A DNA stretch of 61,943 nucleotides from an uncultured Gammaproteobacteria bacterium (lineage in GTDB: Bacteria > Patescibacteriota > Patescibacteriia > Patescibacteriales > UBA12465), in the NCBI GenBank assembly GCA_964406935.1, contig CAYOTM010000003.1:1-61943 (forward strand), read 5' to 3'. The notes below the pieces were generated by a model. The model ran no database searches and was not told where the DNA came from. It saw only the letters and a program-made list of their open reading frames with translations. This document shows, in pieces, positions 21,450-42,860 of the stretch (the stretch's first letter is position 1; the number at the start of each line of letters is the position of its first letter). Position numbers and translations under genes: made by a program.

Positions 21450-21486
21450 TTATTAGTTTTTTTATATTTTCTAAATTTTATTTATA

Positions 21487-21495
21487 TGGTATAAT
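21487..21495 (+). promoter_or_regulatory. extended -10 promoter element upstream of the giant-protein operon
   Basis: TGGTATAAT (TG-n-TATAAT) lies 78 nt upstream of the ATG at 21573. The -35 is weak. Confidence 0.4.
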
Positions 21496-21572
21496 ATTAA
21501 ATATTAAAAGGCTTAAATTGTTTAGCCTATTTAATAAAATTATAACATAATTATTTAGTAAATTAAATTAAC

Positions 21573-24221
21573 ATGAGCTGTAAAATTATCAAAGTTTTTT
21601 TACTAGTTATTTTTTCTTTTTTTGTAATTCAGACAATACCGGCTTTAGCCCAAGTGAATGAAGTTTATGGGCTTGATGGCCCACCAGTAGCTGGCATGGA
21701 AACCGCCGATGATCTTGACATTAAACAGGTGATTTCTAATATTATCTCCTGGGTTTTAGGATTTTTGGGTTTAATTGCTGTTTCAGTAGTAATGTATGCT
21801 GGTTTTTTATGGATGACATCGGGCGGAGTGGCTGATAAAATAAGTAGGGCCAAGAAAATGTTGATTAATGGTTTAATTGGTTTATTGATAATTATTTTTT
21901 CTTGGGTGATTGTTACCTTAGTTTTTAAAACAGTTTCGGACGCAATATTTGGCGGTGACTTTACCGATAAAATCCCTAGCCAATATTTTAGCCCCGGCTT
22001 TGGCGCTTTAGGAGTTTGTACTTTAAGTTATGTTTATCCTGAGCCGTGGCAAAAGGAAGTGCCCCGCAATACCACAATCATGGTAACCTTTAAGGAAAAG
22101 TTAAACCCTTTATCGGTTTGTATTGCTGACGATGGTAGTCCTTGTGATTGCAATCAAGCAGGGTGTAGTTTAATTAATTATAACAATCTCACTATTTATC
22201 CAAAAAATTTAGGGAACAGTGAAGAAAATTATTTAAAAAATGCGATTGCGCAACTAACTGAAGATCAAAAAACAATTATTATAATTCCTCAAGAATATTT
22301 AGGATCTTCTAGCGGTAATATAAGTTATGTAGTGAGATTATCAGGCTTAGAAAAAGAAAACAATGATTTAATTTTTAGTACCTGTGCCTCTGACTGGTTT
22401 GAGTGGGAGTTTGAAGTAAGTGATAAAATTGACCTTATCCCCCCCCAAATTTTATCAGGCGGTATTTTTCCGTTACCGGATGATGAAAAAGATAATAAAA
22501 TAGAAACTGTTGCGGTTAAAGCTCAAGGCAGTATTAGTGTTCAAGCTTGCCCAGGAATTTATCAAGCAGCTACTAATGAAAACCCAGTTCCTATTGGCAG
22601 CTCTGGCCCTGCTACGGCGACCGTTTATTCTGATTATAGTAAGCCTTATAATACACTAGAGCTTGTTGTTTTATCTAATAATAGCGTCCAACTAAAAAGT
22701 GGAGTCAATTTATTAGGAACAGCTAATTGGGTTAATAATTCTGTCACCTTTCCTGAATATATAACTTTAAATGTTGACAACTGGGAGGCAGGTAACTCTT
22801 GGACGGTGCAAGTTAATCAGAGACAATTAGCCGATACTTTGACTATTGGTAATCAGGTATATACTTTTGCGGAGGAGGCATCTAATATTAGTCAAATAAC
22901 TGTTCCTAGCCCTTGTAATTTAGGGGGCCAAGCTCAAAACATTGCTAATCAATTAAATAATCATCCTAACATCGCACCAACATTGAGTGGCACAACTGTA
23001 AATTTAGAAGCAAGATTAGCTGGTGTAGCTAGTAATTCAATTATTTTAGCCACCACCAATGAAACTGCTTTATTATTAGCGCCAATGAGCGGCGGGCTTA
23101 ATGGGGGCACTAGTTATATTATTAATGATAGTGCTGATGGGCCAATGAATTCTATTATTCAAATTAACTTTAACGAAGCGATTAATCCGTTTAATGTTTC
23201 TGGCCCAGCGACTTTAGTGCAGGATTATATTCGAGTAATAAACAACCAAGCTGGCGCTTTAGCGGCTGGTCAAGCTTGCGGCCAAAACAGTAATTGTTTG
23301 TCTTATAACTGTCAATCTGGCCAATGTATCGGCAATATTTTAGCTGGTGAATTTAGAATTAGCAATCGTTATCGGACAGTAGAGTTTATTAGTGATAATG
23401 AATGTGGCACCAATAGTTGTGGGGAAAAATTTTATTGCCTACCGGCTGATAGTAATCTTCGAGTAGAACTTAGGGCCGCTGATTTACGTTCTTGTGCCTC
23501 TGATAATGACTGTTTGATGTATCAACCATTTGGGCAGTGCCTAAATAGTGACTTAGGCTATCAGACTTGTCAAAACACTGATGGCAGATATTTTCCAACA
23601 TCTGATGTTAATAATTTAAATGGTGTTGTTGATGCCGCCTTTAATTCGCTTGATGGTAATCGTAATTCTTTTGCTGATGGGCCTGCTAGTTATTATAATG
23701 AAAATAATCCCAACCCTGACTCGGGCGATAATTATCGTTGGAGTTTTTTTATTAATGATGTGATTAATACTAATCCTCCAAATATTAATTTTGTTAGTCC
23801 ATTACAGGGATCTCCAGAGGTTTCCAGTATAGATCCAATAAAAATTTATTTTGACTCTTTAATGTTAAATAGTAGTTTACGATCCGGTTCGATTATTTTA
23901 ACTGGCCCCAGCGGAACGACTGAACATAAATTAATTAATTTAAGTACTGATGCGGGGGCCGTGGGCTATTGGATTGGTTCAGAAAATGTTGACTTAAATT
24001 TAGATGGTAAGGCTGATGTTACTTACGCCACCATTTTAAATACAGGATTACCGCCTTTAGTTACTTGGCGAGCCCAAGTTGGCTCAGGAGTGAGAAATAT
24101 TTATCAAAATTGTTTTAAGCCTAGCTCGGGTCCTGATTGTAGCGCTAGCGAAGAAAATCCTTCATGTTGTTTTGGTGCCCCAACCTCTATCTTAGATGCT
24201 CAGGGCAATTGCTTGCCATAA
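21573..24221 (+). CDS. giant surface protein A: VirB2/TrbC-like pilin module fused to an Ig-like/Cys-rich ectodomain
   Basis: 882 aa. Signal peptide (ALA|QV), then two hydrophobic helices flanking a TSGG..R.KK loop. Three SbsA/Big_5-like segments follow (VPRNTTIMVTFKEKLNP, MNSIIQINFNEAINP, IDPIKIYFDSLMLNS), plus Cys clusters. Confidence 0.75.
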   Translation: MSCKIIKVFLLVIFSFFVIQTIPALAQVNEVYGLDGPPVAGMETADDLDIKQVISNIISWVLGFLGLIAVSVVMYAGFLWMTSGGVADKISRAKKMLINGLIGLLIIIFSWVIVTLVFKTVSDAIFGGDFTDKIPSQYFSPGFGALGVCTLSYVYPEPWQKEVPRNTTIMVTFKEKLNPLSVCIADDGSPCDCNQAGCSLINYNNLTIYPKNLGNSEENYLKNAIAQLTEDQKTIIIIPQEYLGSSSGNISYVVRLSGLEKENNDLIFSTCASDWFEWEFEVSDKIDLIPPQILSGGIFPLPDDEKDNKIETVAVKAQGSISVQACPGIYQAATNENPVPIGSSGPATATVYSDYSKPYNTLELVVLSNNSVQLKSGVNLLGTANWVNNSVTFPEYITLNVDNWEAGNSWTVQVNQRQLADTLTIGNQVYTFAEEASNISQITVPSPCNLGGQAQNIANQLNNHPNIAPTLSGTTVNLEARLAGVASNSIILATTNETALLLAPMSGGLNGGTSYIINDSADGPMNSIIQINFNEAINPFNVSGPATLVQDYIRVINNQAGALAAGQACGQNSNCLSYNCQSGQCIGNILAGEFRISNRYRTVEFISDNECGTNSCGEKFYCLPADSNLRVELRAADLRSCASDNDCLMYQPFGQCLNSDLGYQTCQNTDGRYFPTSDVNNLNGVVDAAFNSLDGNRNSFADGPASYYNENNPNPDSGDNYRWSFFINDVINTNPPNINFVSPLQGSPEVSSIDPIKIYFDSLMLNSSLRSGSIILTGPSGTTEHKLINLSTDAGAVGYWIGSENVDLNLDGKADVTYATILNTGLPPLVTWRAQVGSGVRNIYQNCFKPSSGPDCSASEENPSCCFGAPTSILDAQGNCLP
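21651..21920 (+). repeat. copy 1 of the duplicated pilin-module coding repeat
   Basis: About 270 nt, collinear with 24343-24614. Long identical runs include ATGTATGCTGGTTTTTTATGGATGAC and TTTTTGGGTTTAATTGCTGTT. Confidence 0.85.
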
Positions 24222-24252
24222 TTATAGCCATAATAATTTTTAATATATTATC

Positions 24253-27200
24253 ATGAAACGCCCAAATTATTTTTATTTAATTTTTTTCAGCTTGTTGTTG
24301 GGAGCCCTTACTTTATTTCTTGTTAATACTTCAGCCTTGGCTCAAGTAAGTGATGTTTATGGGCTTGATAGCCCGCCAGTAACTGGCATGGAAACAGCTG
24401 ACGACTTAGATTTAAAAGATGCTATTTCTAGGGCCATCTCTTTTGTTTTAGGTTTTTTGGGTTTAATTGCTGTTGTTGTTGTGATGTATGCTGGTTTTTT
24501 ATGGATGACCTCAGGTGGAGCAGTGGAACGAATTGATAGGGCGAAAAGAATGTTAAAAAATGGCTTGATTGGTTTATTAATAATTATTTTTTCTTGGGCC
24601 ATCGTCACTTTAGTAATTAATACAGCGATTAATTTTCCTGGTATTGGCTCGGGAGTGGTTTGTCAAGACGGTGACACTAAGCCCTGTGGTTGCGGTGGCG
24701 TTAGATATTGTTTTGATGGTGCCTGGGGTGTTTGTGAGGGCTCTGATTGTAGTACCCTTCCACCAGGAACCGGGGGTAGTAGTTGTGATGCCAATCCATT
24801 AACACCAGAGTGTGACATTGACAATGATGCTTGCGATCCTAGTTGGTATTGTGATGGCGCTTCTTGTACCTGCAAAGCGCTTGGTAGTATTGGTTCGCCC
24901 TGTAGTAGTGATCCTCTAGGGTCTTGTGTCCCGGATAATAATTTATGTGGTCAGTATTTAACTTGTTCTGATGCTTGTGTCTGTGAAGGGGGTCCGGTGA
25001 TTTTAGATATTATACCAGTTGGCGGATTTTGTTCTAACAATATTAATACCCCTTGTCTCAGTAATGATGATTGTGGGGCGGGTACTTGTGACACCACTAC
25101 TCCCAATGGAGCGATAGATAATTTTATTACTATTTTTGGTTTAAATTTTGGTGATTATCAATCTGGGGTTAGTCAAGTCCTATTTTTTAACAATAGTTTG
25201 CCTGGCGGTGTTCCGGGAAACTTGCCTAGTGACATTAATCCTACTTGCAGTAATCATTGGACCGATACTCAAATCATCATTGCTATCCCAGCTGGAGTTG
25301 ATCTTGGTCCAATTGTAGTGAAAACAGCTGATGGTCAAGAAGATTCTAGTAATGCTGGCCCCGGTCCAGTTTTAGTTGACTTTCAACCTAATAACATTGC
25401 TCGTCCTGGTTTATGTGAAATTGATCCTCAATCAGGGGTAGCTGATGATTTAATTAATTATCAAGGAATCAATTTATTTAATGGTGAAGCTTATTTTGGT
25501 AGCTATACTCAAAACATTAAAGCGGCTGATTCTAATTTTAATGATTCTCAGGGAATAACTGGTAGTGCCTCGGTCCCTTATATTGGGGCTGGCCAAGCTA
25601 GCACTTTTGTAGCTGGCACCATTGCTGGTTTTTTACAAAAAAGCAATTATTTATATTTTACTAAAAATCAAGAACCTCAGGCGACGCCTTTTATTTCTAG
25701 TTTTGAGCCCAGCCAAGGAACGATTGGCCAATATATTACTATTTATGGTAGTGGTTTCGGCGATTTTAAGGGTAATAGTAGTGTTTATTTAGGTGGCAAT
25801 GAGGTTAATTATACTTTTCCAGAGGTTTGCGCTAATTCAGTTTGGGATAATAATAAAATTATCGTTAAGGTTCCCGAAGGAATTGCTAATGGTGATTATA
25901 CAATTAATTTAAATATTGGTTCCTTAACGATTAGCTCTGAACAATTAAATCCAGATAAGTTCACGGTTAATACTAGCTTGCCTCTGCCTCCAAGCTTATG
26001 TCGCGTTTCTCCTATTAGAGGACAAGCTGATTATTCAGTAAAACTATGGGGAGAATATTTTGGGCAAACAAATTCTAGTGCTCAAGCAGTTTTTCATGTT
26101 AATAAATTATTTCTTGGGCTTATTCAAAAAGATGGTACAGCTGATTTATTAGAAGCTAAGGTTCCAGTGGGGGCAATTACTGGCCCACTTAAAGTAGTTA
26201 ATACTAGTAATTTATTAGCTAGCAATAATTTTAATTTTGAAATTGGTCCTTGTCAAACCGATGCTGATTGCGGTCTAGATATTTGTTGTCCAGCTGGAAC
26301 CTTTAAGGCTAATCGTTGTGAAACAACTTTAAATGATTGTTCTTTAGATATTCCCAGTTCCGTTTTTGAATGGAGTTTTAGTACTGGTTTTTCAGGTGAT
26401 GGTGGAAATGGTGTAGGTACTGATAGTTGTGAGGGCTTAGCTCATTTATTGGGTGCTTGTCAGGTTGATGAATTCTGTCCTAATTCGCCCGGTTTATGTT
26501 CAATTTCTCCTTTTGGACAAGCCATTAGTTCTTGTGATAGTTCTTGTAATAGCATTAGTGATTGTGTGGGCAATCAATGTACTTTTGTTTCCTCCTTAGA
26601 TAAATGTAATTTAAACGGCTCTACTTGTTCGGCTGATCAGCCCTTTACTTATGAGTTGGGCGGAGGGACCTATGAAACTACTCGTTCTTGTCAGTTGTTT
26701 AGCGGTCAAGGTCATTGGTATATTCCTATTAAAACTTCTTGCCCTAGTGGTTGGATTAATATTGGTTATGGTTGCAGGTCAATAGAAAATTGTAATGCTT
26801 GCATCGCTGGTTTTAGTTGTGCTGATTTGGGTAGCGGCGGAACCTGTGTTTCAAGTAAGTTGTGTTCGGCTAGCGCCACTTGCGTTAATGATGAATGTTT
26901 ACGCAATCAATCATTTTGTGAATGTTGTTGTGAAATTGGTCAGAGCGAAAGCGATTGTTGTTATCCTTTACAATGTGAAGGAACTTGCGGCTCTGATTTA
27001 GCTGATGATGGCGTCGGACTAGGACGTTGTTCTGGTTGCACAACTTATGTTGGGGGAGTGATTGATCAAGCATTGTCTAACTCGGCTTGTAACTGCCCTG
27101 GTTTTTCTGGTAAATATTGTGACACTAATATTGGTTCGGGCGTTTGTGTCGACTGTTCTAATCTCGGAGAAGATGACTGTCGAGCTAATAGTGATCAATG

Positions 27201-30126
27201 TTGTTTTGATGCCAAAACTAGTGCTTGTCGCGGAGGTAGCGGTCAAATAATTAGCAGTGATCCGAGTGATCCTAATTTTGGTTCTTGTGCTTATTATGAT
27301 TGCGATGCAGCTGATCCTGGAACTTGCGCGATTGATGCGCCGACCCCAACTGGTGATTATTTTAGTCAAGCAGCTTGTGAATCAGGTTGTCCTAGTAATT
27401 ATAGTGAAGCTTTTTGTAATCAATTTTCTTATGATAAAATTTCTTGTGATAATTATAGCTTCTGTTGTTATAATTTTGCCACGGAAGTTTGTAGTAAAAA
27501 TGATCCAATAGTGGGTGGTGATGATAATGGTTATTGTCCTTTTTATAACTGTCAAACAGCTGAACCAACTTTATGTGATGCTAACCCACTTTTAGAAGGG
27601 ACTTATAATAGTCTTTCAGCTTGTGATCTTGGTTGTGCTAGTTCTAGCGGTTTAGGATTAAGTTGTTTTAATCGCAAAAGTTTAACTTGCCAGGCCAGTT
27701 TATGTGGTTTTCCTTTTTCTTGCTTACAAGAAGATGGTTCGACTATTACTAGCTTAGATACACCACCAGATTGTGGAACTTGTTGTTGTAGTATGGCTGA
27801 TCCAATTGCTTCTTGTAATTTAGGAATTCCAAATACCTCTTTAGTTTGTCAGCCTAATCAATCTCCTTGTACTGGTGATAATCGAGGTCTGTGTTGTGGC
27901 TGCACCCAGGACGCGGATTGTGGAGACGAGGCATTCTTAGGTTGTGGTTATGACACATGTTGTCGAGCTCGACCATCTGTTTTATCTGATCAGGTGCTTC
28001 CACCTACTGGGGCGGTTAATGTTTGTCGTAATGCGATGTTAACTATTCCTTTTGATCAGAGAATGGACGCCGGTTCTTTTGGCGGTAATGTAATGTTATT
28101 AGAAGAACACGATAGTGGTCCTTGTCCAACTGGCACTTTTATTTTTACAGAAAATTTACCTCAAAAATCTAATTTCTTAACTCGCTTCTTGGTCCAAGTT
28201 AAATCTTTATGGAATCGTTATTTTTATAGCCCCGCTTTAGATACTGCTTTAGCTTTAACACCTGATAGTAGCAAATTATATTGTTTAGTCCCTGGAGTAG
28301 CTCAGTATGAAAATTTAGTTGACTCCAGTATTTTATATTATTATCCTCGTCGTTTATTTAAAGATAATACTAATTATTTCTTTATTGTTAAGGGCTATGA
28401 GTCGGCTGAAAATCAATCTTTAGGCGTACTTAGTTATTGGGGAATAGCGATGAATGGACCAGGGCTATTAGTTAATGGTTCATTTGTTCCTAGTGATAGT
28501 TATCAATTTAATCAAGTTACTTATTCTAAAGCTTATATTACTTCTTTTAAGACGATGTCTGATCAAGCAACTAACTCTGGTGTTTGTACGGTTGATTATG
28601 CCTCGGTTACGCCCCCTTCCTATTTATTTAATACTTCAGAAAATGATTTAAACGAAAATGATGCCAATCCTGGTGATTCTACTTTTGATACGGTGCGAAA
28701 TAAAGATAAATTATTTACAGCTAAGGCTTATAGTTTTGATGGGCAAGCAATTACTCCAACTACGGGTTATTATTGGGAGTGGGATTTTGAATTAGAAAAA
28801 ACTGGTGTGGCCGATATTGATCCAGTGGTTGGCTTAAAAAATAATCAAGCGTTTCTTTCCGTGATTGACGGCGTTCAAGATGATAGCACTTTTTTACGGG
28901 CGACTGTTAAGATGGATCGTTTCAGCGTTGGTTCCGCTTGTAATTCTGCCAGCAGTTGTGTTTGTGATAGTTTAAATAACTGTTCTAGTAATTGTTGTAA
29001 CTTTGACTTTACTGGTGATGGTACAATTGCCCGCTCTAATATTAATGTTTTTATTTGTCGTAATCCCTGGCCAGCGGTTAATCCTGATTATTCCTGGAGC
29101 CCTTGGGTGGATCTTTATAATTATAAATTTTATTATTGTCGAGATGATGGTGGGCCAACCTTAGCTGATGATTTGCCAGCCATTATTGATCCGGCTGTTA
29201 TTCAAGGAGCTAGTAATTCAATTTGTAGTGTCAGCGGGGCTAGTTGTAGTAATTTAGGAGGGCCTTGTGGTCCTGATAATTCAGGGATATGTATTTGGAA
29301 CGTTTTGAGAGAATCATATTTTTTCCGGCAAACAACGCCGAGCGCTGGTCAAATTACTGAGGCTATTAATCAGGCGGTCGGTAATACAATTTTATTAAAG
29401 TGGGAAGGGAATTCTGATTTAATTTATAATTCTAACCCAGCTTTTATGGGAACCTATCGGATTTACTATTCTCAAGCTAATGCTGGAAGTTTTTCTTATA
29501 TTGAAATTAAACCAAGTGATCCAGTTGATCCTGACAGCGGCTTAAGCACTCAAGCTTGCACCCCAGTTAATCCTAGCGCTGGTCAAAACTATACTTGTCA
29601 GAGAATAGTTAGAGACTTAGAGAATAATAAAAGCTATATTTTTAGAGTATCAGCAGTTTCTCGAACTAAAACTGAAACTTTTTTTCGTAATCAAAAAACT
29701 GTGACTCCAACTGATCAAGTGCCCCCAAGCGTGCCTAGCGGTTGTAGCTTTTCATTAATAACTAATGATAATACTATTAAATTTACCTGCTCTATCGTTT
29801 CTGCTGATACTAAAACTTTACGCTTATACCATGGAGTATCACCAAATTTATACGGGCAATCGTTTGATTTCGCGGTTGATGAAGTGCCGTTTTCAGTATC
29901 AGTAGATGCATTCTTATTTAAAGAAGGAACTAATTATTTTACAGTTTCAGCTTTAGATGGGGCAGGCAATGAAAGTGCTAAGTCAAATATGATGAATGCC
30001 ACCATTCAATTTTTTCAATGTTATTGTGAAGGGGGCGAGGAATGTCAAACTTGTGGTCAATTTAATAATATATCAACTTGTGAAAATAATGACGATTCTT
30101 ACAGCTGTGTTTGGTCGACCCAGTAA
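24253..30126 (+). CDS. giant surface protein B: pilin module + IPT/TIG repeats + large Cys-rich region + FN3 domains
   Basis: 1957 aa. Same N-terminal module as protein A. At least four IPT/TIG-like units (ITIFGLNFGD, ITIYGSGFGD, VKLWGEYFGQ). A Cys-rich block spans about 650 aa, and I hand-count roughly 100 or more Cys overall. C-terminal FN3-like units (YRIYYSQ...YIFRVSAVS). Confidence 0.75.
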   Translation: MKRPNYFYLIFFSLLLGALTLFLVNTSALAQVSDVYGLDSPPVTGMETADDLDLKDAISRAISFVLGFLGLIAVVVVMYAGFLWMTSGGAVERIDRAKRMLKNGLIGLLIIIFSWAIVTLVINTAINFPGIGSGVVCQDGDTKPCGCGGVRYCFDGAWGVCEGSDCSTLPPGTGGSSCDANPLTPECDIDNDACDPSWYCDGASCTCKALGSIGSPCSSDPLGSCVPDNNLCGQYLTCSDACVCEGGPVILDIIPVGGFCSNNINTPCLSNDDCGAGTCDTTTPNGAIDNFITIFGLNFGDYQSGVSQVLFFNNSLPGGVPGNLPSDINPTCSNHWTDTQIIIAIPAGVDLGPIVVKTADGQEDSSNAGPGPVLVDFQPNNIARPGLCEIDPQSGVADDLINYQGINLFNGEAYFGSYTQNIKAADSNFNDSQGITGSASVPYIGAGQASTFVAGTIAGFLQKSNYLYFTKNQEPQATPFISSFEPSQGTIGQYITIYGSGFGDFKGNSSVYLGGNEVNYTFPEVCANSVWDNNKIIVKVPEGIANGDYTINLNIGSLTISSEQLNPDKFTVNTSLPLPPSLCRVSPIRGQADYSVKLWGEYFGQTNSSAQAVFHVNKLFLGLIQKDGTADLLEAKVPVGAITGPLKVVNTSNLLASNNFNFEIGPCQTDADCGLDICCPAGTFKANRCETTLNDCSLDIPSSVFEWSFSTGFSGDGGNGVGTDSCEGLAHLLGACQVDEFCPNSPGLCSISPFGQAISSCDSSCNSISDCVGNQCTFVSSLDKCNLNGSTCSADQPFTYELGGGTYETTRSCQLFSGQGHWYIPIKTSCPSGWINIGYGCRSIENCNACIAGFSCADLGSGGTCVSSKLCSASATCVNDECLRNQSFCECCCEIGQSESDCCYPLQCEGTCGSDLADDGVGLGRCSGCTTYVGGVIDQALSNSACNCPGFSGKYCDTNIGSGVCVDCSNLGEDDCRANSDQCCFDAKTSACRGGSGQIISSDPSDPNFGSCAYYDCDAADPGTCAIDAPTPTGDYFSQAACESGCPSNYSEAFCNQFSYDKISCDNYSFCCYNFATEVCSKNDPIVGGDDNGYCPFYNCQTAEPTLCDANPLLEGTYNSLSACDLGCASSSGLGLSCFNRKSLTCQASLCGFPFSCLQEDGSTITSLDTPPDCGTCCCSMADPIASCNLGIPNTSLVCQPNQSPCTGDNRGLCCGCTQDADCGDEAFLGCGYDTCCRARPSVLSDQVLPPTGAVNVCRNAMLTIPFDQRMDAGSFGGNVMLLEEHDSGPCPTGTFIFTENLPQKSNFLTRFLVQVKSLWNRYFYSPALDTALALTPDSSKLYCLVPGVAQYENLVDSSILYYYPRRLFKDNTNYFFIVKGYESAENQSLGVLSYWGIAMNGPGLLVNGSFVPSDSYQFNQVTYSKAYITSFKTMSDQATNSGVCTVDYASVTPPSYLFNTSENDLNENDANPGDSTFDTVRNKDKLFTAKAYSFDGQAITPTTGYYWEWDFELEKTGVADIDPVVGLKNNQAFLSVIDGVQDDSTFLRATVKMDRFSVGSACNSASSCVCDSLNNCSSNCCNFDFTGDGTIARSNINVFICRNPWPAVNPDYSWSPWVDLYNYKFYYCRDDGGPTLADDLPAIIDPAVIQGASNSICSVSGASCSNLGGPCGPDNSGICIWNVLRESYFFRQTTPSAGQITEAINQAVGNTILLKWEGNSDLIYNSNPAFMGTYRIYYSQANAGSFSYIEIKPSDPVDPDSGLSTQACTPVNPSAGQNYTCQRIVRDLENNKSYIFRVSAVSRTKTETFFRNQKTVTPTDQVPPSVPSGCSFSLITNDNTIKFTCSIVSADTKTLRLYHGVSPNLYGQSFDFAVDEVPFSVSVDAFLFKEGTNYFTVSALDGAGNESAKSNMMNATIQFFQCYCEGGEECQTCGQFNNISTCENNDDSYSCVWSTQ
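24343..24614 (+). repeat. copy 2 of the duplicated pilin-module coding repeat
   Basis: See 21651-21920. My hand alignment of the encoded peptides gives about 74 identical residues out of 96. Similarity stops abruptly after the second helix. Confidence 0.85.
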
Positions 30127-30187
30127 TAAACTAGTCGCTTGTTAATTGTTTCTAGTGAATCAACCTTAAATAATTTATTATATTTGT

Positions 30188-33100
30188 ATGTTTAAAAAAC
30201 TATCATTTAGACTAGCTACTTATTTAGCAGCTTTTGTTATTATTAGTCTAATTGTTTTTTTAGAATTTAAAAGCATTGAAGCTCAAACCCCTCCAGCAAT
30301 TCCTATGGCGACTGATGAGCGAGACGCCATCGCGGTGCGTGTATTGCCTAATCCAAACAATTATAGCGTTACTTACTGGTATAATAGTCAAGGATTTTCT
30401 GGCTCTCCCCAGTCTTTAGTGGTTGATGGCTATCAGGCTATTCGTGATGGTCGCACTATTTATGTTAATGCCGCTAACATCGCTGGCAATAATTTATATA
30501 CTAATATTTATTTAATTTCTCACAATCAAGATCCTGATACAAAAACCATTGATATTTTAGGAAGAATTATTAATCATTGGAAATTCAACAGCAATTTAAC
30601 TGACGCTGGAAAATGTTCAATCGCTACTAAATATTGTCAATCTAATAATGATTGTGACGACGGAACGGTTTGTCAAGAAATTGGTGATTCACTTTCAATG
30701 TGTCGAGATGCCAAGCAAATTAGTTGTTTAACTGATGCTGAGTGTCCCGGTGGTTTATTTTGTGATAGTGTTAAAGCTAAAGTTACTCGTGATGTTCAAC
30801 GTTTAGGTGCTTTAAGCGATATTAGGGCGTCCCTTACTAGATATCAATCAGCTAACGGTACTTATCCAATTTTAGGAGCGGGCACTTATATTAGTCATAA
30901 TTCTGTTTCTACTTGGCCGAGTTGGCGCAATGTTTTTCTTTCACAGTTAGGATTAAATCCTAATTTAATTGATCCAATTAATATTTTAGGACCCTGTCCT
31001 GATCATGACTTAACTACTTGTTGGAATGAAACAACCGGCACCTTTGCTGATCCGATTAATAATAATCAATTAAATATGCCGGGCGGCAGCTACGCCATCG
31101 CTTATTCTAGTGATCCTAACGGTTCTAATTATTTTCTCTGTTCAGTTTTAGAAAGTCATATGTTAGGTTATAATACTCCCGAGGGTGCCATGTCGAACCA
31201 AGCCTGTGTAACCGGTGGCACTGGTTATACCGGTATTGCTACTGGCAATCAACCACCCCAATTAGTTTCTTATTATCTTCAGGGAGAGTCGGGTCAAGAA
31301 TTTAGTGGATTTTTTCGAGTAATGGATCCTGAAAATAATCCTTTAAGCTGGGTCCTAGATACTGATGCCACTTCTTGGCCCGGTTGGAGTTTAGCCCCAA
31401 CTTTACAAGACACAGGCAATCCCAACCAGAAAAGAGTTTACGCCTCTAGAGCGGGGAATGCTGGTAGTTATCTCGTAACCTTAAAAGTGAGTGATTCTTT
31501 GGGGGCTAACATATCAACCACCGTTCCTATAATTATTGGTAATCCAGCTCCGTTTATTGAAATGAGTGATATTGACTATTATCTAAATCCCATAAATCCT
31601 TTAGAATTTTCTTTTAATATTACTGATAATAATTTAAGTAATACCCCAACCAACGTTTATACCTTATCATCAATTAGTTCGCCTAACATTTTAGTCGATA
31701 GCCTTAAAACTCACAGTTATCTTGGTAATACCCTGACTGTTAATGTCAGCAAGCTAATACCCACTAGTTTAAAATTCTATCAAGATACTGTTTCTAGAGT
31801 AAATATTTTGGCCAGAGACACTATGTTAGCGCAATCTACTTTAGATTTTAAGATTAATTTAAAAATTACTCCGCCTCGCTTAGATTTTGTCTGTCCGCGG
31901 CAAATTAGAGCCGGATCTCAATATTTTTGTTTAATTGGGTCTGATCAGCAAGGTGATTTTAATATTCAATATTCTTCCAATACCCTGCCTAGTAACATTG
32001 CTCTTCATAAATTGCTCGAGACCGAAGAATTAATTGATTATTATAATTATGATTCTTCCAATATTTTTGTTGCTAATAAGAGTGGTTCTTATGTTTCCGA
32101 TTGGATTTTAACTGGTCAAGGCGCTGATAATAAAATTGGCGCTCATAATATTATTATTAAAGCTACTAATAATTATGGAGCGTCGACTACGCGTCAGTTT
32201 GTTTTAAATATTAATAATTATTGTGGCGACGGTGTAAAGCAAACCCCTAATACTGAGGGTCGTGGTGGTTTTTATAATGACGGCAATGAAGATTGTGATG
32301 GTAATTATGGAATCACCACTAATCCAGAAAGTAGTAGTATTAATCAACAATATGCTTGTAGTACCCCGGTTAATTCTAAAGTTATTTTTCCTATTTTAAC
32401 CGGTGATCATTGTATTTTTAAATCACCTTATAATGGGGGCGGCTACTGTGGTGATGGTTTATGTCAAGCAACTTTTGAAAATTCTCTTACGTGTCCTGTA
32501 GATTGTGGTGGCATAGGAATAAATCCACCTGTCTGCGGTAATGGGATAGTAGATGCTAATGAGCAAGATACTAATGAGCAATGCGAAATAATTAATAATC
32601 AAATTAACCCCACCCCCAACTGTGTTGATGTTCCTGGCGCTAATTATAATAGTGGTAGTTTGTTGTGTCAAAATTGTCAATATAATTATAGTGCCTGTAC
32701 CTGTCAACTTGGTTATTATGATTGCGATTATTCTATCGGTTGTGAATCAACTACAGCGTGTCCCACCTGTGTTACTTCTTGTGATGATAAGGCTGGTTTA
32801 GCTGCGGTTAATGATGGCTTGAATTGTGGTTATGATTTAAGTCGAGGGACAAACTGTGGCACTATTGATTGTCCATCTTGTAATCCCAGTCAAGTTTGCG
32901 CTAAAGGTTATCCAGACACTGATTGTTCTATAATTAATTCTACTGACTGTCCCACGCCTGATAATAATAAGGGTTTTTGTACTTTTGATAATGGGTGTAG
33001 CATGGTGGTTGATGCTCCAAATATTTTTGAAAGGGGCAGAATGTTTTGTATGTCTACCCATGACGCAATTACTATTTGTCCTAATACATCAGAAAAACAA

Positions 33101-33439
33101 GTTTATGAGAAGGTTTATAATATTAATAATGTTTGCTATGTTAGTAATAGCGACTGTTCAAATTTTGCTTCTCCCGGTATCCACTACAAAGTTTCTATTA
33201 ATGAGAATAATGGCAATCTTATAAATTATTGGGCGACTTATATGGGCAGCAACTTTGCTGTCAGTAGTTGTTCGGGGGGCTCTGGTGATGTGCCACCACC
33301 ATCAGATTACGAGTGTTGTTGTAAGACCCAGCCTTGTGATCCGAAATGTAACTCATATTTAGATCAACCTACTTGTACGGCCAATAAAGATGAAAACTGC
33401 TCTTGGATTATTTCTGGTAGCGCCCCATGTTATCAATAG
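30188..33439 (+). CDS. giant surface protein C: signal-anchored, Ig/cadherin-like and CGDG/CGNG cysteine-repeat protein
   Basis: 1083 aa with an N-terminal hydrophobic anchor. An Ig-like segment (NQPPQLVSYY...YLVTLKVSDSLGAN). Cys repeats of the YCGDG.. / VCGNG..D..E.CE type. The C-terminal Cys module is shared with protein B. Confidence 0.7.
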   Translation: MFKKLSFRLATYLAAFVIISLIVFLEFKSIEAQTPPAIPMATDERDAIAVRVLPNPNNYSVTYWYNSQGFSGSPQSLVVDGYQAIRDGRTIYVNAANIAGNNLYTNIYLISHNQDPDTKTIDILGRIINHWKFNSNLTDAGKCSIATKYCQSNNDCDDGTVCQEIGDSLSMCRDAKQISCLTDAECPGGLFCDSVKAKVTRDVQRLGALSDIRASLTRYQSANGTYPILGAGTYISHNSVSTWPSWRNVFLSQLGLNPNLIDPINILGPCPDHDLTTCWNETTGTFADPINNNQLNMPGGSYAIAYSSDPNGSNYFLCSVLESHMLGYNTPEGAMSNQACVTGGTGYTGIATGNQPPQLVSYYLQGESGQEFSGFFRVMDPENNPLSWVLDTDATSWPGWSLAPTLQDTGNPNQKRVYASRAGNAGSYLVTLKVSDSLGANISTTVPIIIGNPAPFIEMSDIDYYLNPINPLEFSFNITDNNLSNTPTNVYTLSSISSPNILVDSLKTHSYLGNTLTVNVSKLIPTSLKFYQDTVSRVNILARDTMLAQSTLDFKINLKITPPRLDFVCPRQIRAGSQYFCLIGSDQQGDFNIQYSSNTLPSNIALHKLLETEELIDYYNYDSSNIFVANKSGSYVSDWILTGQGADNKIGAHNIIIKATNNYGASTTRQFVLNINNYCGDGVKQTPNTEGRGGFYNDGNEDCDGNYGITTNPESSSINQQYACSTPVNSKVIFPILTGDHCIFKSPYNGGGYCGDGLCQATFENSLTCPVDCGGIGINPPVCGNGIVDANEQDTNEQCEIINNQINPTPNCVDVPGANYNSGSLLCQNCQYNYSACTCQLGYYDCDYSIGCESTTACPTCVTSCDDKAGLAAVNDGLNCGYDLSRGTNCGTIDCPSCNPSQVCAKGYPDTDCSIINSTDCPTPDNNKGFCTFDNGCSMVVDAPNIFERGRMFCMSTHDAITICPNTSEKQVYEKVYNINNVCYVSNSDCSNFASPGIHYKVSINENNGNLINYWATYMGSNFAVSSCSGGSGDVPPPSDYECCCKTQPCDPKCNSYLDQPTCTANKDENCSWIISGSAPCYQ

Positions 33440-33460
33440 TCAATAAACTAACATAACTCT

Positions 33461-33787
33461 ATGAAATCATTAAATGATCCTCAAACTAAAAAAGTATTTA
33501 TAATTGTTTTAAGTATTGTTTTATTAATCAGTTTAATTTTAATTGTTGTTTTTTTCATCCCTAAAAAATCTTTCGCCCCCCAAATTCCTAGTTCATCGCC
33601 TGGCAGTGAAGAACCAATTATTATCCCCCTAGAATATCTTAGCCCAGAGGAGCTCGATCAATTAGGAGTTGATTCTACTATTCAAGCTCAAATAATCAGT
33701 CGTGATCCACTAATCTATAAGATTATTAATTCCGAAGAAGATATTGTGACCGATATTCGTCCTTTAATGCAGCCCCTTCGGGAATAA
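33461..33787 (+). CDS. small single-pass membrane protein
   Basis: 108 aa, one TM (VFIIVLSIVLLISLILIVVFFI). Starts 21 nt after protein C, on the same strand. Confidence 0.5.
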   Translation: MKSLNDPQTKKVFIIVLSIVLLISLILIVVFFIPKKSFAPQIPSSSPGSEEPIIIPLEYLSPEELDQLGVDSTIQAQIISRDPLIYKIINSEEDIVTDIRPLMQPLRE

Positions 33788-33864
33788 TTTTAATAAATAT
33801 TTAATAAATTTACTTTTAATTTATAAATAATCGTCCCTTTGTTGGCCGAATAATTAAAAAATAT

Positions 33865-34977
33865 ATGTTTGATAATTTATCTAAATCAGAGCAGACTAAA
33901 AAAAATGAAACAGTTGATGATATTTTTGCTGATACCGATCAAGGAGATTTGCCAAATGATGCCACTAAGATGGTCACTCAGCAACCTAATTCTTCAGCTC
34001 CCACTATGAAATCTATGCCTACTATGAAATTATCTTCAGAGGCTGAAAAATTAGATCCGCAAATTGCTAACGACCCCCTAATGGCTGATGAAGAGGAGGT
34101 TAGAGCTGGTGGTTCTAATAAAATAATGAAACCTCTAATTATCGTGTTAATAGTAGTTTTGCTGGCCGGTGGTGCTTATTTTGCTTTAAGATTTTTTGGC
34201 GTCCTTGATCAATTTTCAGAATCAACGCCCGCTACGCCCATCGTGACCGATAGTAATCAAAATTTAGATGATTTTGATGACATATTAGATTCCCCTGAAT
34301 TTATTGACCCCTTTTTATTACTTGACGATGAAGAAGATCTGGAGGATGTGGTTATCTTGCCAGATATTATTGATGAGGATGAATATATTGAACCCTTAGA
34401 TCCAGCCGAAATTAAAATTTCTTGGCGGGATGTTCCCTTGTTAGATAGTGATAACGATGGTTTAAGTGATATTACTGAGGAGTTGATTGGGGCTGATCCT
34501 TTTAGCGCTGATACTGATGGCGATGGCTATAGTGATTATCAAGAGCTAATGAATGGTTATAATCCTTTAGATGAGGGGACTTTGCCCCCTAATTTTTCTG
34601 TGCTAAACTTTACTGACAGTGGTTTATCATTTTTTTATTCACCTACTTGGTCAGTTAATCGTCTAAATGACAATACTTGGCAACTAAAATCACCAATTGA
34701 TCAAACTAGTGTAAAAATTACTCGTGAGCAAAACCAATTGCCAGATATTTTCACTTGGTATGCCTCCACTTTTTCTGACCTTAATCCAGTGACCAGTGAT
34801 CGTTTAGTTTATAATTCGCAATTAGGAGCGGGAATTGTGACAGTTGATGGTTTTAATTTAATGTTTGCCTCAGCTGATAATAACTATATTTTAAGATTAT
34901 TTTTAGAAATTGATAATAATGATATAAACCACAGCGGACCGCTGGCTTTATTTATCAATACATTATCTCAACAATAA
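33865..34977 (+). CDS. single-pass membrane protein with thrombospondin-type-3-like Ca-binding repeats (paralog 1)
   Basis: 370 aa with a TM at IIVLIVVLLAGGAYFAL and an acidic linker. DSDNDGLSDITEE...DTDGDGYSDYQE repeats. The C-terminal ~140-aa domain is shared with the next ORF. Confidence 0.65.
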   Translation: MFDNLSKSEQTKKNETVDDIFADTDQGDLPNDATKMVTQQPNSSAPTMKSMPTMKLSSEAEKLDPQIANDPLMADEEEVRAGGSNKIMKPLIIVLIVVLLAGGAYFALRFFGVLDQFSESTPATPIVTDSNQNLDDFDDILDSPEFIDPFLLLDDEEDLEDVVILPDIIDEDEYIEPLDPAEIKISWRDVPLLDSDNDGLSDITEELIGADPFSADTDGDGYSDYQELMNGYNPLDEGTLPPNFSVLNFTDSGLSFFYSPTWSVNRLNDNTWQLKSPIDQTSVKITREQNQLPDIFTWYASTFSDLNPVTSDRLVYNSQLGAGIVTVDGFNLMFASADNNYILRLFLEIDNNDINHSGPLALFINTLSQQ

Positions 34978-34983
34978 ATTATT

Positions 34984-36009
34984 ATGAAAATAATCAATAG
35001 GAACAAAGAAGAAGCGGAAATAACCAATCAACCACCGATTGAGCCCCAGCCTAATTTAGATCAAGAAATAATTATTCATGTTATGCCCAGTCAATCATCT
35101 TTGAGTGGGGTAACTTATGATAATGAAAGCGTTAAACAGGGAGGCGGACAAACTAGCACCAAAAAAATTGGTTTAGTCATTTTTATTTCCGGAGGATTGA
35201 TTATTATCGCTTTGTTATATTTTGGTTATCGTTACTTAATTGCTCCCTCTTTAGAAATTCCTGATCAGCCGACCTCTCCAATTACTGCCGTTACTCCCCA
35301 GCCAACTCAACCAGTTACCCCCGCTCCTTCTGAAGATCCTATTATTATTGATATTCCTGAAGATCCTATTATTATTGATATTCCTGAAGATTCTGAAGTT
35401 CCGATTATTGAGGAAGACCCCTTTATTAATCCCCCTGAAGAAGATCCCGGAGTTTCTTTGTTGACGGTTTCTTTTGTTGATCGTGATAATGACGGCCTCA
35501 GTGATTTAGCTGAAGAATTTCTTGGGGCCGACCCCCTTAATGCAGATACCGATGGTGACGGCTACCCTGATTTAGAAGAAATTAACAATGATTATAATCC
35601 TTTGGGTGAGGGTCGACTGTCTGAAGATTTTCCAGCTATTAAGTATCAATCTACTAATTTAAGCTTTTTATATCCGCTTGACTGGGAAATTCAAACAATT
35701 GATGATAATGTTTGGTTAATGTCATCACCCGATGGTTCAATGATTCAATTATCTCGTCGTGAAAATGAAAATCAGTTAAATGTCTTTTCTTGGTACGCTA
35801 ATGAGTTTGGCACTTCAGCGCCAATTCCCAGTAATCGAATTTTACAAGCAGGTCTAGGTGTCGGCGTTTTGAGTGAGGACGGCAAAATTGTTTACTTTAC
35901 CTCCCCTGACCTTAATTATATTTTAGTAATTTCTTATTTTGCTACTGATATCGACTTTAATCATTTTGGAGCCTTAGCTTTATTTTTAGACACTTTAAAT
36001 TATCAATAA
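34984..36009 (+). CDS. single-pass membrane protein with thrombospondin-type-3-like Ca-binding repeats (paralog 2)
   Basis: 341 aa with the same architecture: DRDNDGLSDLAEE...DTDGDGYPDLEE, and a C-terminal domain alignable to paralog 1 (LSF.Y...W......DN.W...SP... FSWYA). Confidence 0.65.
   Translation: MKIINRNKEEAEITNQPPIEPQPNLDQEIIIHVMPSQSSLSGVTYDNESVKQGGGQTSTKKIGLVIFISGGLIIIALLYFGYRYLIAPSLEIPDQPTSPITAVTPQPTQPVTPAPSEDPIIIDIPEDPIIIDIPEDSEVPIIEEDPFINPPEEDPGVSLLTVSFVDRDNDGLSDLAEEFLGADPLNADTDGDGYPDLEEINNDYNPLGEGRLSEDFPAIKYQSTNLSFLYPLDWEIQTIDDNVWLMSSPDGSMIQLSRRENENQLNVFSWYANEFGTSAPIPSNRILQAGLGVGVLSEDGKIVYFTSPDLNYILVISYFATDIDFNHFGALALFLDTLNYQ
35332..35391 (+). repeat. perfect 27-bp tandem repeat (2 copies + 6 nt) inside paralog 2
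   Basis: GAAGATCCTATTATTATTGATATTCCT occurs at 35332-35358 and again at 35359-35385, followed by GAAGAT. It encodes EDPIIIDIP twice. Confidence 0.95.
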
Positions 36010-36051
36010 ATATAATTTAAAGAGTTGACGATAAATTAGAGTAATTGATAA

Positions 36052-36084
36052 AAAAATCACCTTCTGAATGTAGAGGTGATTTTT
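36052..36084. terminator. bidirectional terminator between the giant-protein operon and clpP
   Basis: AAAAATCACCT - 11-nt loop - AGGTGATTTTT. Confidence 0.75.
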
Positions 36085-42044: not shown

Positions 42045-42860
42045 ATGTTAATCTTTGGTCTGGTTATTTTTTTAATTGGTCTGTCACTGGGTAGTTTTGC
42101 TAATGTTTTAGTGTGGCGTTTAGCGACTAAGCGTTCAATTTTAGGACGTTCAATTTGCCCCCAGTGTAACAAGCAAATCGCTTGGTATGATAATTTACCA
42201 ATTATTTCCTTTATTTTTTTAGGCGGTCATTGTCGATTTTGTCGGCAAAAAATTTCTTGGCAATATCCTCTAGTTGAACTATCAATCGCTATTTTATGGC
42301 TAATTGCTTGGTTTAAGGCCTTTGATTATCAATTAGTCTCTTTGGTTGATTTATGGCCCACCCTGGTTAACAGTGGGGTTATTTGGATGTTATTAAGAGA
42401 TTGGTTGGCCGGCTTTTTATTAGTTTTTATTTTAGTGTTTGATTGGCGATTTTTATTAATCCCGATTAATTTACTAGTTATTTTTGCCCCAATCTTTTGG
42501 TTATTCAATGTTTTAATTGGTCAAATTTGGTGGCAACCATTGCTTAGCGCTGGAATATTAGCGATTTTTTTTGGTTTACAGTTTGTAATTACTAAAGGCA
42601 AGGGCTTGGGAGAGGGTGATATTTGGTTAGGTGCTTTTTTGGGGTTTTTACTGTCTAGTTGGCCGGCAGTTTTAGCGGCAGTTTTTGTTGCTTATCTACT
42701 AGGATCATTAGTTGGTCTTATTTTAATGTTAATCAAGAAAAAACATTGGCATTCTCGTTTACCTTTAGGTACTTTTTTAGCTTTTGGGGCAATTTTAGCC
42801 ATTTTTTGGGCGGAAATAATTTGGTCTGCCTACTTTAATTTATTTGATTTTTTGGTTTAA
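42045..42860 (+). CDS. pilD: prepilin (type IV leader) peptidase, A24 family
   Basis: N-terminal CPQC...CRFC zinc motif, WYDNLPIISF, and the catalytic-Asp region GLGEGDIWLGAFLG. Confidence 0.85.
   Translation: MLIFGLVIFLIGLSLGSFANVLVWRLATKRSILGRSICPQCNKQIAWYDNLPIISFIFLGGHCRFCRQKISWQYPLVELSIAILWLIAWFKAFDYQLVSLVDLWPTLVNSGVIWMLLRDWLAGFLLVFILVFDWRFLLIPINLLVIFAPIFWLFNVLIGQIWWQPLLSAGILAIFFGLQFVITKGKGLGEGDIWLGAFLGFLLSSWPAVLAAVFVAYLLGSLVGLILMLIKKKHWHSRLPLGTFLAFGAILAIFWAEIIWSAYFNLFDFLV

Follow-up and report, generated by a model that had tools for sequence, protein, structure and literature searches.

What do the six adjacent genes at positions 21573-36009 of contig CAYOTM010000003.1 (assembly GCA_964406935.1) encode, and do they act together? 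An initial annotation of the whole 61,943-nt stretch of DNA analyzed here (hereafter the window), made from its letters alone, had presented them as a candidate undescribed cell-surface or host-attachment system. The six open reading frames (ORFs), named A to F, all lie on the forward strand, occupy about 14.4-14.5 kb, and are separated by gaps of 31, 61, 21, 77, and 6 nt; the coordinates and spacings first given for these co-directional ORFs were reproduced exactly. Both neighbours, relA upstream and clpP downstream, are on the opposite strand. On balance, the operon probably builds a membrane-anchored, disulfide-stabilised surface assembly, most likely for contact with a cell or surface in an episymbiotic lifestyle. 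For each of the six products, the sequence predicts export or anchoring in the membrane, with most of the protein outside the cell.

The two ends of the cluster carry conserved transcription signals. Upstream of gene A, an extended -10 element (TGGTATAAT; 21488-21496, forward strand) was read in the sequence, and among 55 related loci, 52 have the pattern TGnTAnAAT 5' of their A orthologue, compared with 2.5% of random 140-nt windows; the columns of this element are invariant in an alignment of 29 sequences. At the other end, a bidirectional intrinsic terminator (36052-36084, both strands), composed of an A-run, a hairpin, and a T-run, is common to gene F and the convergent clpP. A simple consensus scan did not pick up this hairpin, whose folding free energy is -13.7 kcal/mol (z = -4.2); a hairpin with flanking A- and T-runs is found 3' of gene F in 55 of 62 relatives, with its position kept and its sequence not. 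Within the cluster there is no excess of terminator-like sites (12 versus 11.7 expected from shuffles). Thus, the extended -10 and the bidirectional terminator that had been noticed at the outset are both present and both conserved in relatives, the reported absence of internal terminators agrees with the shuffled level, and the suggestion of a single transcript gains comparative support. With conserved signals at both ends and short gaps between the ORFs, the six genes appear to act as one unit, and comparative evidence lends good support to a single transcript. No recognisable Shine-Dalgarno sequence was found for any of the six genes in their AT-rich leaders (21537-21572, 24222-24252, 30127-30187, 33440-33460, 33788-33864, and 34978-34983).

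The relA-A intergenic region (21450-21572) also contains a second invariant box, AATTATAnCA (21538-21547), downstream of the operon -10. On the minus strand this box reads TGnTATAATT, an extended -10 directed at relA, and the two promoters face each other, an arrangement kept across the 29 aligned loci. With the promoters facing each other, the 5' leaders of relA and the operon would overlap by about 25-35 nt; the palindrome AGGCTTAAATTGTTTAGCCT (21509-21528) lies within this predicted overlap. Rfam gave no match in the operon leader or the relA-A intergenic region. It could be that relA (stringent response) and the surface operon are coupled via transcriptional interference or a shared operator.

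Conservation of the gene set was analyzed in 79 loci around homologues of C from species-representative genomes, which were searched with the six proteins and the flanking genes and whose ORFs were mapped. The order relA (minus strand), A, B, C, small transmembrane (TM) protein, E-like protein, F, clpP (minus strand), secD, secF was observed in about 55-60 of these 79 species-level loci. A synteny check across relatives had been set beforehand by the initial annotation, and its outcome is that the order is kept rather than the homologues being scattered and never syntenic. Where close relatives carry insertions, these fall next to clpP, on its F side (e.g., L035 and L064) or on its secD side (e.g., L017 and L027), and none was found inside the cluster. 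Because the flanks of close relatives are syntenic as well, contigs carrying distant C homologues have more weight, and the argument for linkage leans on a few of them. In one distant contig, C follows clpB and ribosomal-protein genes and still lies directly 5' of a gene for a protein with thrombospondin type 3 (TSP3) repeats. In three others, the TSP3 protein comes after C, either directly (L086) or past a small ORF (L084 and L085), and in L084 and L085 an F-like protein of ~350 amino acids (aa) is encoded next after the TSP3 gene. Moreover, the ORF upstream of C in three distant contigs is the C-terminus of a B-like protein.

Genes A (882 aa; 21573-24221, forward strand) and B (1957 aa; 24253-30126, forward strand) encode the two giants that were said to share an N-terminal module, and their modules are indeed 78% identical over 98 aa. 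In both proteins, a signal peptide with predicted cleavage at ALA|Q is followed by a helical hairpin resembling VirB2/TrbC pilins (A, aa ~50-125, 21720-21947; B, aa ~56-128, 24418-24636; both forward strand). Hydrophobic segments were located at aa 1-28, 52-82, and 95-125 of A and at aa 5-30, 57-87, and 100-128 of B, and the short basic loop between the two hydrophobic helices reads TSGGVADKISRAKKML. Both modules match PF18895 (T4SS_pilin) with scores of 30.0 bits (A) and 28.4 bits (B), above the Pfam gathering cut-off of 26.6, whereas PF04956 (TrbC) scores 21.6 under its cut-off of 27.9 and NCBIfam NF045849 scores 25-31 under its cut-off of 40. In the AlphaFold2 model of A (mean predicted local distance difference test score (pLDDT) 81.7, predicted template modelling score 0.64), helices 50-82 and 87-125 precede a series of beta-sandwich domains. 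The term "pilin-like" in the initial annotation therefore stands as to a pilin of the conjugative VirB2/TrbC type (PF18895), but not as to a pilin of the type IV pilus.

Beyond the hairpin, A continues as an immunoglobulin (Ig)-like chain and has 24 Cys residues in its mature form, whereas B combines Cys-knot regions (aa 130-280 and 660-1240) with TIG/IPT, Big_5-like, and FN3/Big_13-like domains. Of the adhesin-like domain grammar described at the outset, Big_5 in A and TIG in B (E = 4e-11 with the whole protein and 9e-14 on the segment) are significant in Pfam, but Big_5, fn3, and Big_13 in B and PKD in C give weak matches, and ~800 aa of Cys-rich B (aa 130-300 and 660-1250) have no Pfam match. 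A Foldseek search with A returned generic multi-Ig chains (SbsC/Sap surface-layer (S-layer) proteins, CopC-like single domains, and cadherins) with E-values no better than ~5e-4. The C-termini of A (...GNCLP), B (...CVWSTQ), and C (...APCYQ) are not preceded by a hydrophobic segment; a sortase-anchored Gram-positive type of adhesin was excluded by the lack of both LPXTG and such a segment in the three proteins.

Both giants are conserved over almost their full length, with the variable last ~130 aa of B as the exception, and the ORF maps of relatives place A orthologues at ~890 aa and B orthologues at ~1940 aa. Narrower than the family of C, that of A comprises 162 clusters; the 120 of them that were listed are all 816-1002 aa long with PF13205, and nearly all also have PF18895. 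The sequences closest to the A/B module are pilins encoded as stand-alone proteins (113-192 aa; 31-55% identity) in other Patescibacteria; the two closest that were inspected belong to tandem arrays of 7-9 pilin genes, some members of which carry extensions (250-500 aa). Within each of 30 genomes, the A and B modules are 59-79% identical, while module orthologues between species have a median identity of 64%, and the B module of the same genome is the best match of the A module in nine of the 30, compared with about one expected by chance. This modest signal hints at concerted evolution of the two anchors, through co-evolution or gene conversion. The similarity of the two modules points to more constraint than a plain membrane anchor needs.

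The most conspicuous feature of A, B, and C is their content of Cys. A contains 25 Cys (2.8% of its residues), B 130 (6.6%), and C 56 (5.2%), compared with a mean of 0.68% in the other 38 ORFs of the window, i.e., 4-10 times the window background; D, E, and F contain none. The hand count of roughly 100 or more Cys in B agrees with this. Among ~50-60 orthologues, identity at Cys positions is 0.94 versus 0.41 at other positions in A and 0.92 versus 0.37 in B, and at least 90% conservation was found for 22 of the 25 Cys of A and 115 of the 130 of B (the latter over 51 orthologues). Exactly 26 Cys are present in 40 of 56 A orthologues, and B orthologues have ~124. The number of Cys is even in 51 of 56 A proteins, 51 of 61 B proteins, and 51 of 66 C proteins; for C, in which the count spans 20-132, this parity has p = 5e-6 in a binomial test that treats homologues as independent. 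Given this wide range, the C proteins come nearer to being independent samples, even if they remain homologous. His is scarce, with six residues in the 1957 aa of B and two in A. The even parity, the near-invariant Cys, the scarcity of His, and the predicted outside location together favour fully paired structural disulfides over metal binding.

How such disulfides would form had been left open by the initial annotation, with metal binding named as an alternative. It had listed the class III enzyme as the only ribonucleotide reductase in the window, and NrdD and NrdG (with NrdR) were found; its statement that no Dsb-like gene is visible also holds, with no Dsb/thioredoxin-like Pfam match in any ORF of the window at E <= 1e-3. 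A plausible answer has been published, in that an MdbA-like thiol-disulfide oxidoreductase is enriched in the candidate phyla radiation (CPR), often beside VKOR (preprint 10.1101/335083), while the metal alternative is disfavoured.

Protein C (1083 aa; 30188-33439, forward strand) consists of a signal anchor, an N-terminal domain, a Cys knot, a pilin-head-like module (aa ~193-345), a stalk (aa ~355-680) with 3-4 Ig/cadherin-like domains in the predicted model, a CGDG-type Cys module, and a hypervariable Cys-rich tip (aa ~780-1083; 32525-33436, forward strand). Its N-terminal domain (aa ~35-140; 30290-30610, forward strand) is the most conserved stretch of the cluster, with ~60-70% identity across species and the consensus DAIAVRVLPNPNHYS...NIYLISYNQDP. 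Neither Pfam nor PDB searches matched this domain, and its predicted model reached a pLDDT of ~27; it is probably an extracellular domain under strong constraint. Homologues of C are numerous: over 454 clusters reach E ~1e-200 and are 40-49% identical to C across its first ~770 aa, and at E < 1e-30 there are 890 cluster representatives (clustered at 50% identity). Past aa ~775, identity falls from ~0.45 to ~0.1, and the C-terminal domains of the homologues are varied (Fib_succ_major, He_PIG, Beta_helix, CarboxypepD_reg, Laminin_G_3, VWA, and NHL/SGL). The identity drop and the varied domains suggest that the base and stalk are conserved while the distal end can be exchanged. With the stalk, Foldseek retrieved titin, protocadherins, SbsB, and an RTX-adhesin extender at E ~1e-11. 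C had been described as full of CGDG/CGNG-type repeats, which overstates the case for a protein that is Cys-rich and has only three CG[DN]G motifs. Searches for DUF4215/TIGR02232 in Pfam and NCBIfam gave no match with this C at E <= 0.1-1; a distant homologue has a weak PF13948 match, and one homologue is named "dickkopf-related". Self-BLAST revealed no internal repeats in A, B, or C and a single weak match between B and C.

The pilin-head-like module of C resembles a pilin head in BLASTP (E = 7e-4), with no Pfam or PDB profile match, and its model has a helix at 195-223 followed by strands (pLDDT ~55-60). C lacks the prepilin leader and the G/A-F-T-L-I-E helix of type IV pilins and pseudopilins (N_methyl, T2SSG), and the similarity begins at aa ~193, past a Cys knot. 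At the other end of the protein, an observation made by eye is that B (30040-30126) and C (33310-33439) finish in short Cys-rich tails with a Cys...Cys-x-Trp motif (STCENNDDSYSCVWSTQ in B and PTCTANKDENCSWIISGSAPCYQ in C). Such a tail could be a common terminal module or a sorting signal.

The remaining three genes encode small membrane proteins. Gene D (108 aa; 33461-33787, forward strand) specifies the 108-aa membrane protein listed at the outset, a single-pass protein without Cys and with one hydrophobic segment (aa 8-40). Most relatives have an ORF of ~90-125 aa with one TM segment in this position, and sequence similarity to D is detectable in few of them (nine loci by tblastn and 11 ORFs by BLASTP). 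E (370 aa; 33865-34977, forward strand) has a TM segment at aa 83-114, an acidic linker, TSP3 repeats, and an F-like C-terminal domain, and F (341 aa; 34984-36009, forward strand) has one TM segment, a Pro-rich and acidic linker, TSP3 repeats, and a C-terminal domain of ~130 aa. Their predicted cytoplasmic N-termini carry a conserved MFDNL...VDDIFA in E and an invariant "MP" motif in F. As proposed earlier, E and F are tandem paralogous single-pass proteins with TSP3 repeats of the DxDxDG Ca-binding type: they are 36% identical (E = 1e-49), and PF18884 (TSP3_bac; cut-off 25) scores 40.0 bits in E (E = 3.5e-10) and 32.0 bits in F (E = 1e-7), with two repeats each. PF18884 is matched by 19 of 21 members of the F family, whose profile aligns to the Ca-binding repeats of the biofilm-associated surface protein 7c7r (E = 1e-4). 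The gene in the E position of relatives typically encodes ~250 aa, and the copy in L005 (13232-13975; 247 aa) stops just past the TSP3 repeats, which suggests that E of the window gained its ~130-aa F-like C-terminal domain recently by recombination with F.

F also contains a perfect 27-nt tandem repeat (2.3 copies; 35330-35391), which places DPIIIDIPE two times in its extracellular linker. The population is represented in further sequencing runs, among them SRR8925735, SRR8925737, and SRR11702756, by contigs with 99.9% identity; such contigs break exactly at this repeat, and its copy number may vary.

These features can be combined into a working model of the assembly. A single transcript would run from the extended -10 promoter to the terminator shared with clpP, and all six products, judging from their signal peptides and anchors, would enter the Sec pathway. 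A and B would be cut after ALA|Q and each retained in the membrane by its VirB2-type hairpin with the short basic loop in the cytoplasm; the positive-inside rule and the precedent of VirB2 topology would then place C-terminal parts of ~750 aa (A) and ~1800 aa (B) outside the cell. There, chains of Ig-like, TIG, and FN3 domains and Cys-knot modules would be locked by ~12 disulfides in A and ~65 in B, with oxidation presumably carried out by the MdbA/VKOR-type enzymes that the literature describes as common in CPR. C would join as a third subunit with its own anchor, a conserved base, an Ig-like stalk, and a fast-changing, domain-swapping tip, the likely end for recognition of a ligand or host. 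D, E, and F would be small bitopic partners, with conserved motifs on the cytoplasmic side, acidic linkers that cross the wall, and TSP3 repeats that bind Ca, and they would most likely tether or organise C, given that C and a TSP3 protein stay neighbours even in distant genomes. From the domain grammar and the variable tip of C we hypothesise host attachment or adhesion; the topology, the disulfides, contact among the six proteins, and the role in cell contact are likewise what we infer from the sequences.

Several observations weigh against a dedicated contact assembly and have to be set beside the competing explanations. The domain types behind the adhesion reading are also found in non-adhesive coats, and A and B (~42-47% identity, with ~60% for secD) are unusually conserved for adhesins, so that a structural scaffold fits them better than a ligand specific to one host. 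Gene order alone is weak evidence in close relatives, where the flanks are syntenic too, and the 62-kb window lacks a gene for a disulfide-forming enzyme. The predicted model of C has a mean pLDDT of 51 and is poor outside the stalk. Its pilin-like region (~193-245) aligns by hhalign with a true type IV pilin at 88% probability and E = 3e-6 over only 47 columns, covering the alpha1-C helix and the first part of the head, and this comparison rests on one sequence, the sole pilin among the fetched loci (L084). The PsbP-like signal in the C-terminal domain of the F family is weak as well (four of 21 members; best E = 1.6e-4). One competing explanation is an S-layer-like or fibrous coat, in which the six proteins would mainly protect the cell or organise its envelope rather than recognise a partner. 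SbsC and Sap are the best-probability Foldseek matches of A, with SbsB among those of C, A carries a Big_5 (SbsA-type) domain, A and B show strong, uniform conservation around a fixed set of Cys, and the locus sits amid housekeeping genes, beside clpP and secDF. Luef and colleagues (2015, cited in PMC4736985) are also said to have reported a patterned surface layer on groundwater CPR cells by cryo-electron microscopy. We nevertheless think a coat unlikely, though it deserves to be kept in view: the Foldseek matches are weak (E ~5e-4, TM-score <= 0.24) and of the generic Ig-chain kind, no S-layer homology (SLH) or other wall-binding domain was matched in A-F with Pfam or NCBIfam, and a hypervariable, domain-swapping tip as in C is more typical of a recognition protein.

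The hairpins of A and B raise a different possibility, namely that both are true pilins of a type IV secretion system (T4SS), polymerised by a VirB4/VirB6 machine encoded elsewhere into a pilus that displays their ectodomains, alone or together with small pilins, with C-F as accessory or tip factors. Both termini face outward in known VirB2 pili, which would leave room for such display. The scores above the PF18895 gathering threshold, the kinship with stand-alone ~130-aa pilins in tandem arrays, and the array members of 250-500 aa, which form a continuum of C-terminal extensions, all agree with this idea, as does the identity between the two modules, which exceeds what a plain anchor needs where published arrays average 25%. 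VirB2-like pilins are, moreover, described as essential in Southlakia epibionticum in the relevant passages of Wang et al. (2023, PMC10633639). On the other side, no VirB4, VirB6, VirB3, or VirB8 was found among the ORFs of the 62-kb window, whose sole T4SS-related gene encodes a lone ATPase resembling type IV coupling proteins (T4CP-like), the two inspected pilin arrays lack VirB4 within 8 kb, an ectodomain of 800-1800 aa per subunit would probably fit poorly into the VirB2 helical lattice, and known pili include none of this kind; we regard a genuine T4SS pilus as doubtful. Of similarly low probability is a bolder variant in which the hairpins assemble, with or without a T4SS, into a new surface fibre or membrane array that serves as an organelle of episymbiont-host contact. 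If true, it would mean that a conjugative-pilin scaffold has been turned into an adhesion machine with megadalton disulfide-knotted ectodomains specific to this CPR lineage. Two further explanations appear far less credible. The Cys could bind metals or perform redox chemistry, for metal sequestration or electron handling in an anaerobe, in keeping with the oxygen-sensitive class III reductase as the only one in the window, the lack of a Dsb-like protein, and the CxxC (7), CxC (10), and CC (9) motifs of B. Such a role is very improbable in view of the even parity across proteins of very different Cys number, the scarce His in A and B, the predicted extracellular location, the reported spread of MdbA/VKOR-type systems in CPR, and a Cys spacing like that of small Cys-knot modules (weak Dickkopf_N and carboxypeptidase-inhibitor matches in Cys-rich segments in the relaxed Pfam scan). 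Nor is there much to recommend the view that the six genes are functionally unlinked neighbours in a syntenic region. Close relatives do keep the order of the flanking genes too (relA, clpP, secD, secF, Wzy_C/TPR, and pilD), but conservation of the promoter is confined to the 5' side of A and that of the terminator to the 3' side of F, the adjacency of C with the TSP3 gene and of B with C persists where the flanks differ, the insertions of close relatives fall only outside the cluster, and the anchor module of A and B and the domains of E and F are held in common.

Is the proposed membrane-anchored contact assembly, then, a known system? Pfam and NCBIfam profiles were searched with the six proteins and, at relaxed thresholds, with ten sub-segments, and only generic domains were found. 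In PDB sequence searches (family profiles of A, C, and F, and the pilin-like region of C), only the Ca-binding repeats were informative, and with A and C Foldseek retrieved nothing beyond generic Ig chains. The profile, PDB-sequence, and fold searches thus place the set in no characterised system, in line with the original remark that none with this combination could be named. The adjective "undescribed" is justified to the extent that a characterised counterpart was not found, but arrays of VirB2-like pilins and Cys-rich clusters of Peribacteria have already been described.

VirB2-like pilins are present in most Patescibacteria, often as arrays, according to the passages on them in PMC12102498 and the review PMC12857230; an example is the array SEML1_0006-0019 of S. 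epibionticum (Quinonero-Coronel et al. 2025, PMC12102498). As in these arrays, A and B of this monoderm CPR bacterium are adjacent (31-nt gap), each has PF18895 after a Sec signal peptide, and the nearest sequence relatives of their module are small array pilins. Unlike array pilins, however, the hairpin makes up only the first ~125 aa of Cys-rich proteins of 882 and 1957 aa, whereas a VirB2/TrbC pilin is normally the hairpin alone, with ~70-130 aa in mature form. The two modules are 78% identical, compared with a mean of 25% and a maximum of 54% in published Patescibacteria pilin arrays (PMC12102498), no VirB4/VirB6 is found within the window, and A and B belong to a fixed unit of six genes that also includes those for C and the TSP3 proteins. 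A search of PMC12102498 turned up no pilins fused to giant ectodomains, and the passages of PMC10633639 and PMC12857230 on pilins, T4SS, and Patescibacteria speak of small pilins only. As small size, a T4SS context within the window, and array divergence are all lacking, the operon is not a member of the VirB2 pilins or of the published arrays.

The closest parallel to the large Cys-rich proteins is a 14-gene cluster in Peribacteria that encodes large extracellular proteins with signal peptides (mean 1655 aa, ~7% Cys; Anantharaman et al. 2016, PMC4736985), for which attachment was proposed and strain variation reported. Compared by description, the two loci share very large Cys-rich signal-peptide proteins in CPR; they differ in that the Peribacteria belong to another CPR lineage and that a VirB2-type anchor, TSP3 partners, and the six-gene order are not described there. 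In Vampirococcus, too, giant membrane proteins have been proposed to bind the host (PMC8080830). The S-layer proteins SbsC, SbsB, and Sap are similar in their Ig-like (Big_5-type) beta-sandwich chains and are among the best fold matches of A and C, but A-C have no SLH or wall-binding domain, are TM-anchored, and are extreme in Cys content, whereas Cys is typically scarce in S-layer proteins; the fold resemblance of A is weak. RTX adhesins and cadherins share a long tandem Ig/cadherin-like stalk, a distinct distal end, and Ca-binding elements, but RTX repeats, type I secretion system genes, and a sortase LPXTG motif are absent here, the stalk domains are not near-identical, and the Ca-binding repeats are on separate small subunits. 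E and F share the bacterial TSP3 Ca-binding repeat with CglD and MtsD of Myxococcus; this match is confined to the ~50-aa repeat, its scores (23-25 and 13-16 bits) are far below the respective cut-offs of 400 and 800, and the size and architecture of the Myxococcus proteins are unrelated to those of E and F. The operon joins the pilin-array and Cys-rich-giant themes in a fixed six-gene unit with added unnamed partners.

What the locus offers is a concrete set of molecules for the recognition and holding of hosts by CPR bacteria, for which there are almost no candidates outside a few cultivated Saccharibacteria. Giant Cys-rich surface proteins in CPR are unsurprising in themselves; it is the depth of conservation, the VirB2-type anchors, the size of the unnamed C family, and the delimited tip that give testable molecules. 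A fixed framework of ~200 Cys is conserved over dozens of species, and the species-variable tip of C offers a specific candidate for host specificity that can be tested. The fusion of a VirB2-like pilin domain, of a type lately shown to be essential in Saccharibacteria, to giant ectodomains bears on the role of "pilins" in single-membrane bacteria, and the C family and the Cys-rich regions of B, which have no Pfam model, represent a large unnamed protein family.

The genomic setting is that of a typical member of the Patescibacteria (CPR). The window encodes GyrA, RuvB, HisS, RelA/SpoT, ClpP, SecD, SecF, FtsA, FtsZ, NrdR, NrdD, and NrdG, together with a prepilin peptidase and two Wzy_C proteins, and its GC content is low and uniform (0.33-0.39). 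A mobile element or conjugative island was considered and is unlikely, given the housekeeping flanks, the uniform GC, and the lack of an integrase or relaxase in the window. The nearest public relatives mostly carry the labels Falkowbacteria or "Patescibacteria group", and the closest is Parcubacteria ADurb.Bin115 (79% identity in relA and 90% in clpP). Complete genomes of relatives include CP066698.1 and OW818634.1. Two complete relatives have genomes of 0.90 and 0.98 Mb, so that the 14.4-kb cluster amounts to ~1.5% of such a genome, a heavy investment.

Two other genes of the neighbourhood may be mentioned. A Wzy_C (O-antigen-ligase-like) protein with tetratricopeptide repeats (TPR; 39723-42038) is encoded directly upstream of PilD (42045-42860), and the order secD-secF-Wzy_C/TPR-pilD is retained among relatives; the second Wzy_C gene lies at 8124-9437. 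In other bacteria, Wzy_C enzymes of the PglL/PilO type glycosylate pilins, and by analogy the Wzy_C/TPR protein may be a candidate O-glycosyltransferase for pilins or surface proteins. The lone T4CP-like ATPase, a coupling protein of the TrwB/VirD4 kind with a treble-clef zinc finger (49745-51544), is encoded 13.7 kb downstream of the cluster, and its gene adjoins nrdG and an ORF for a 124-aa protein with one TM segment.

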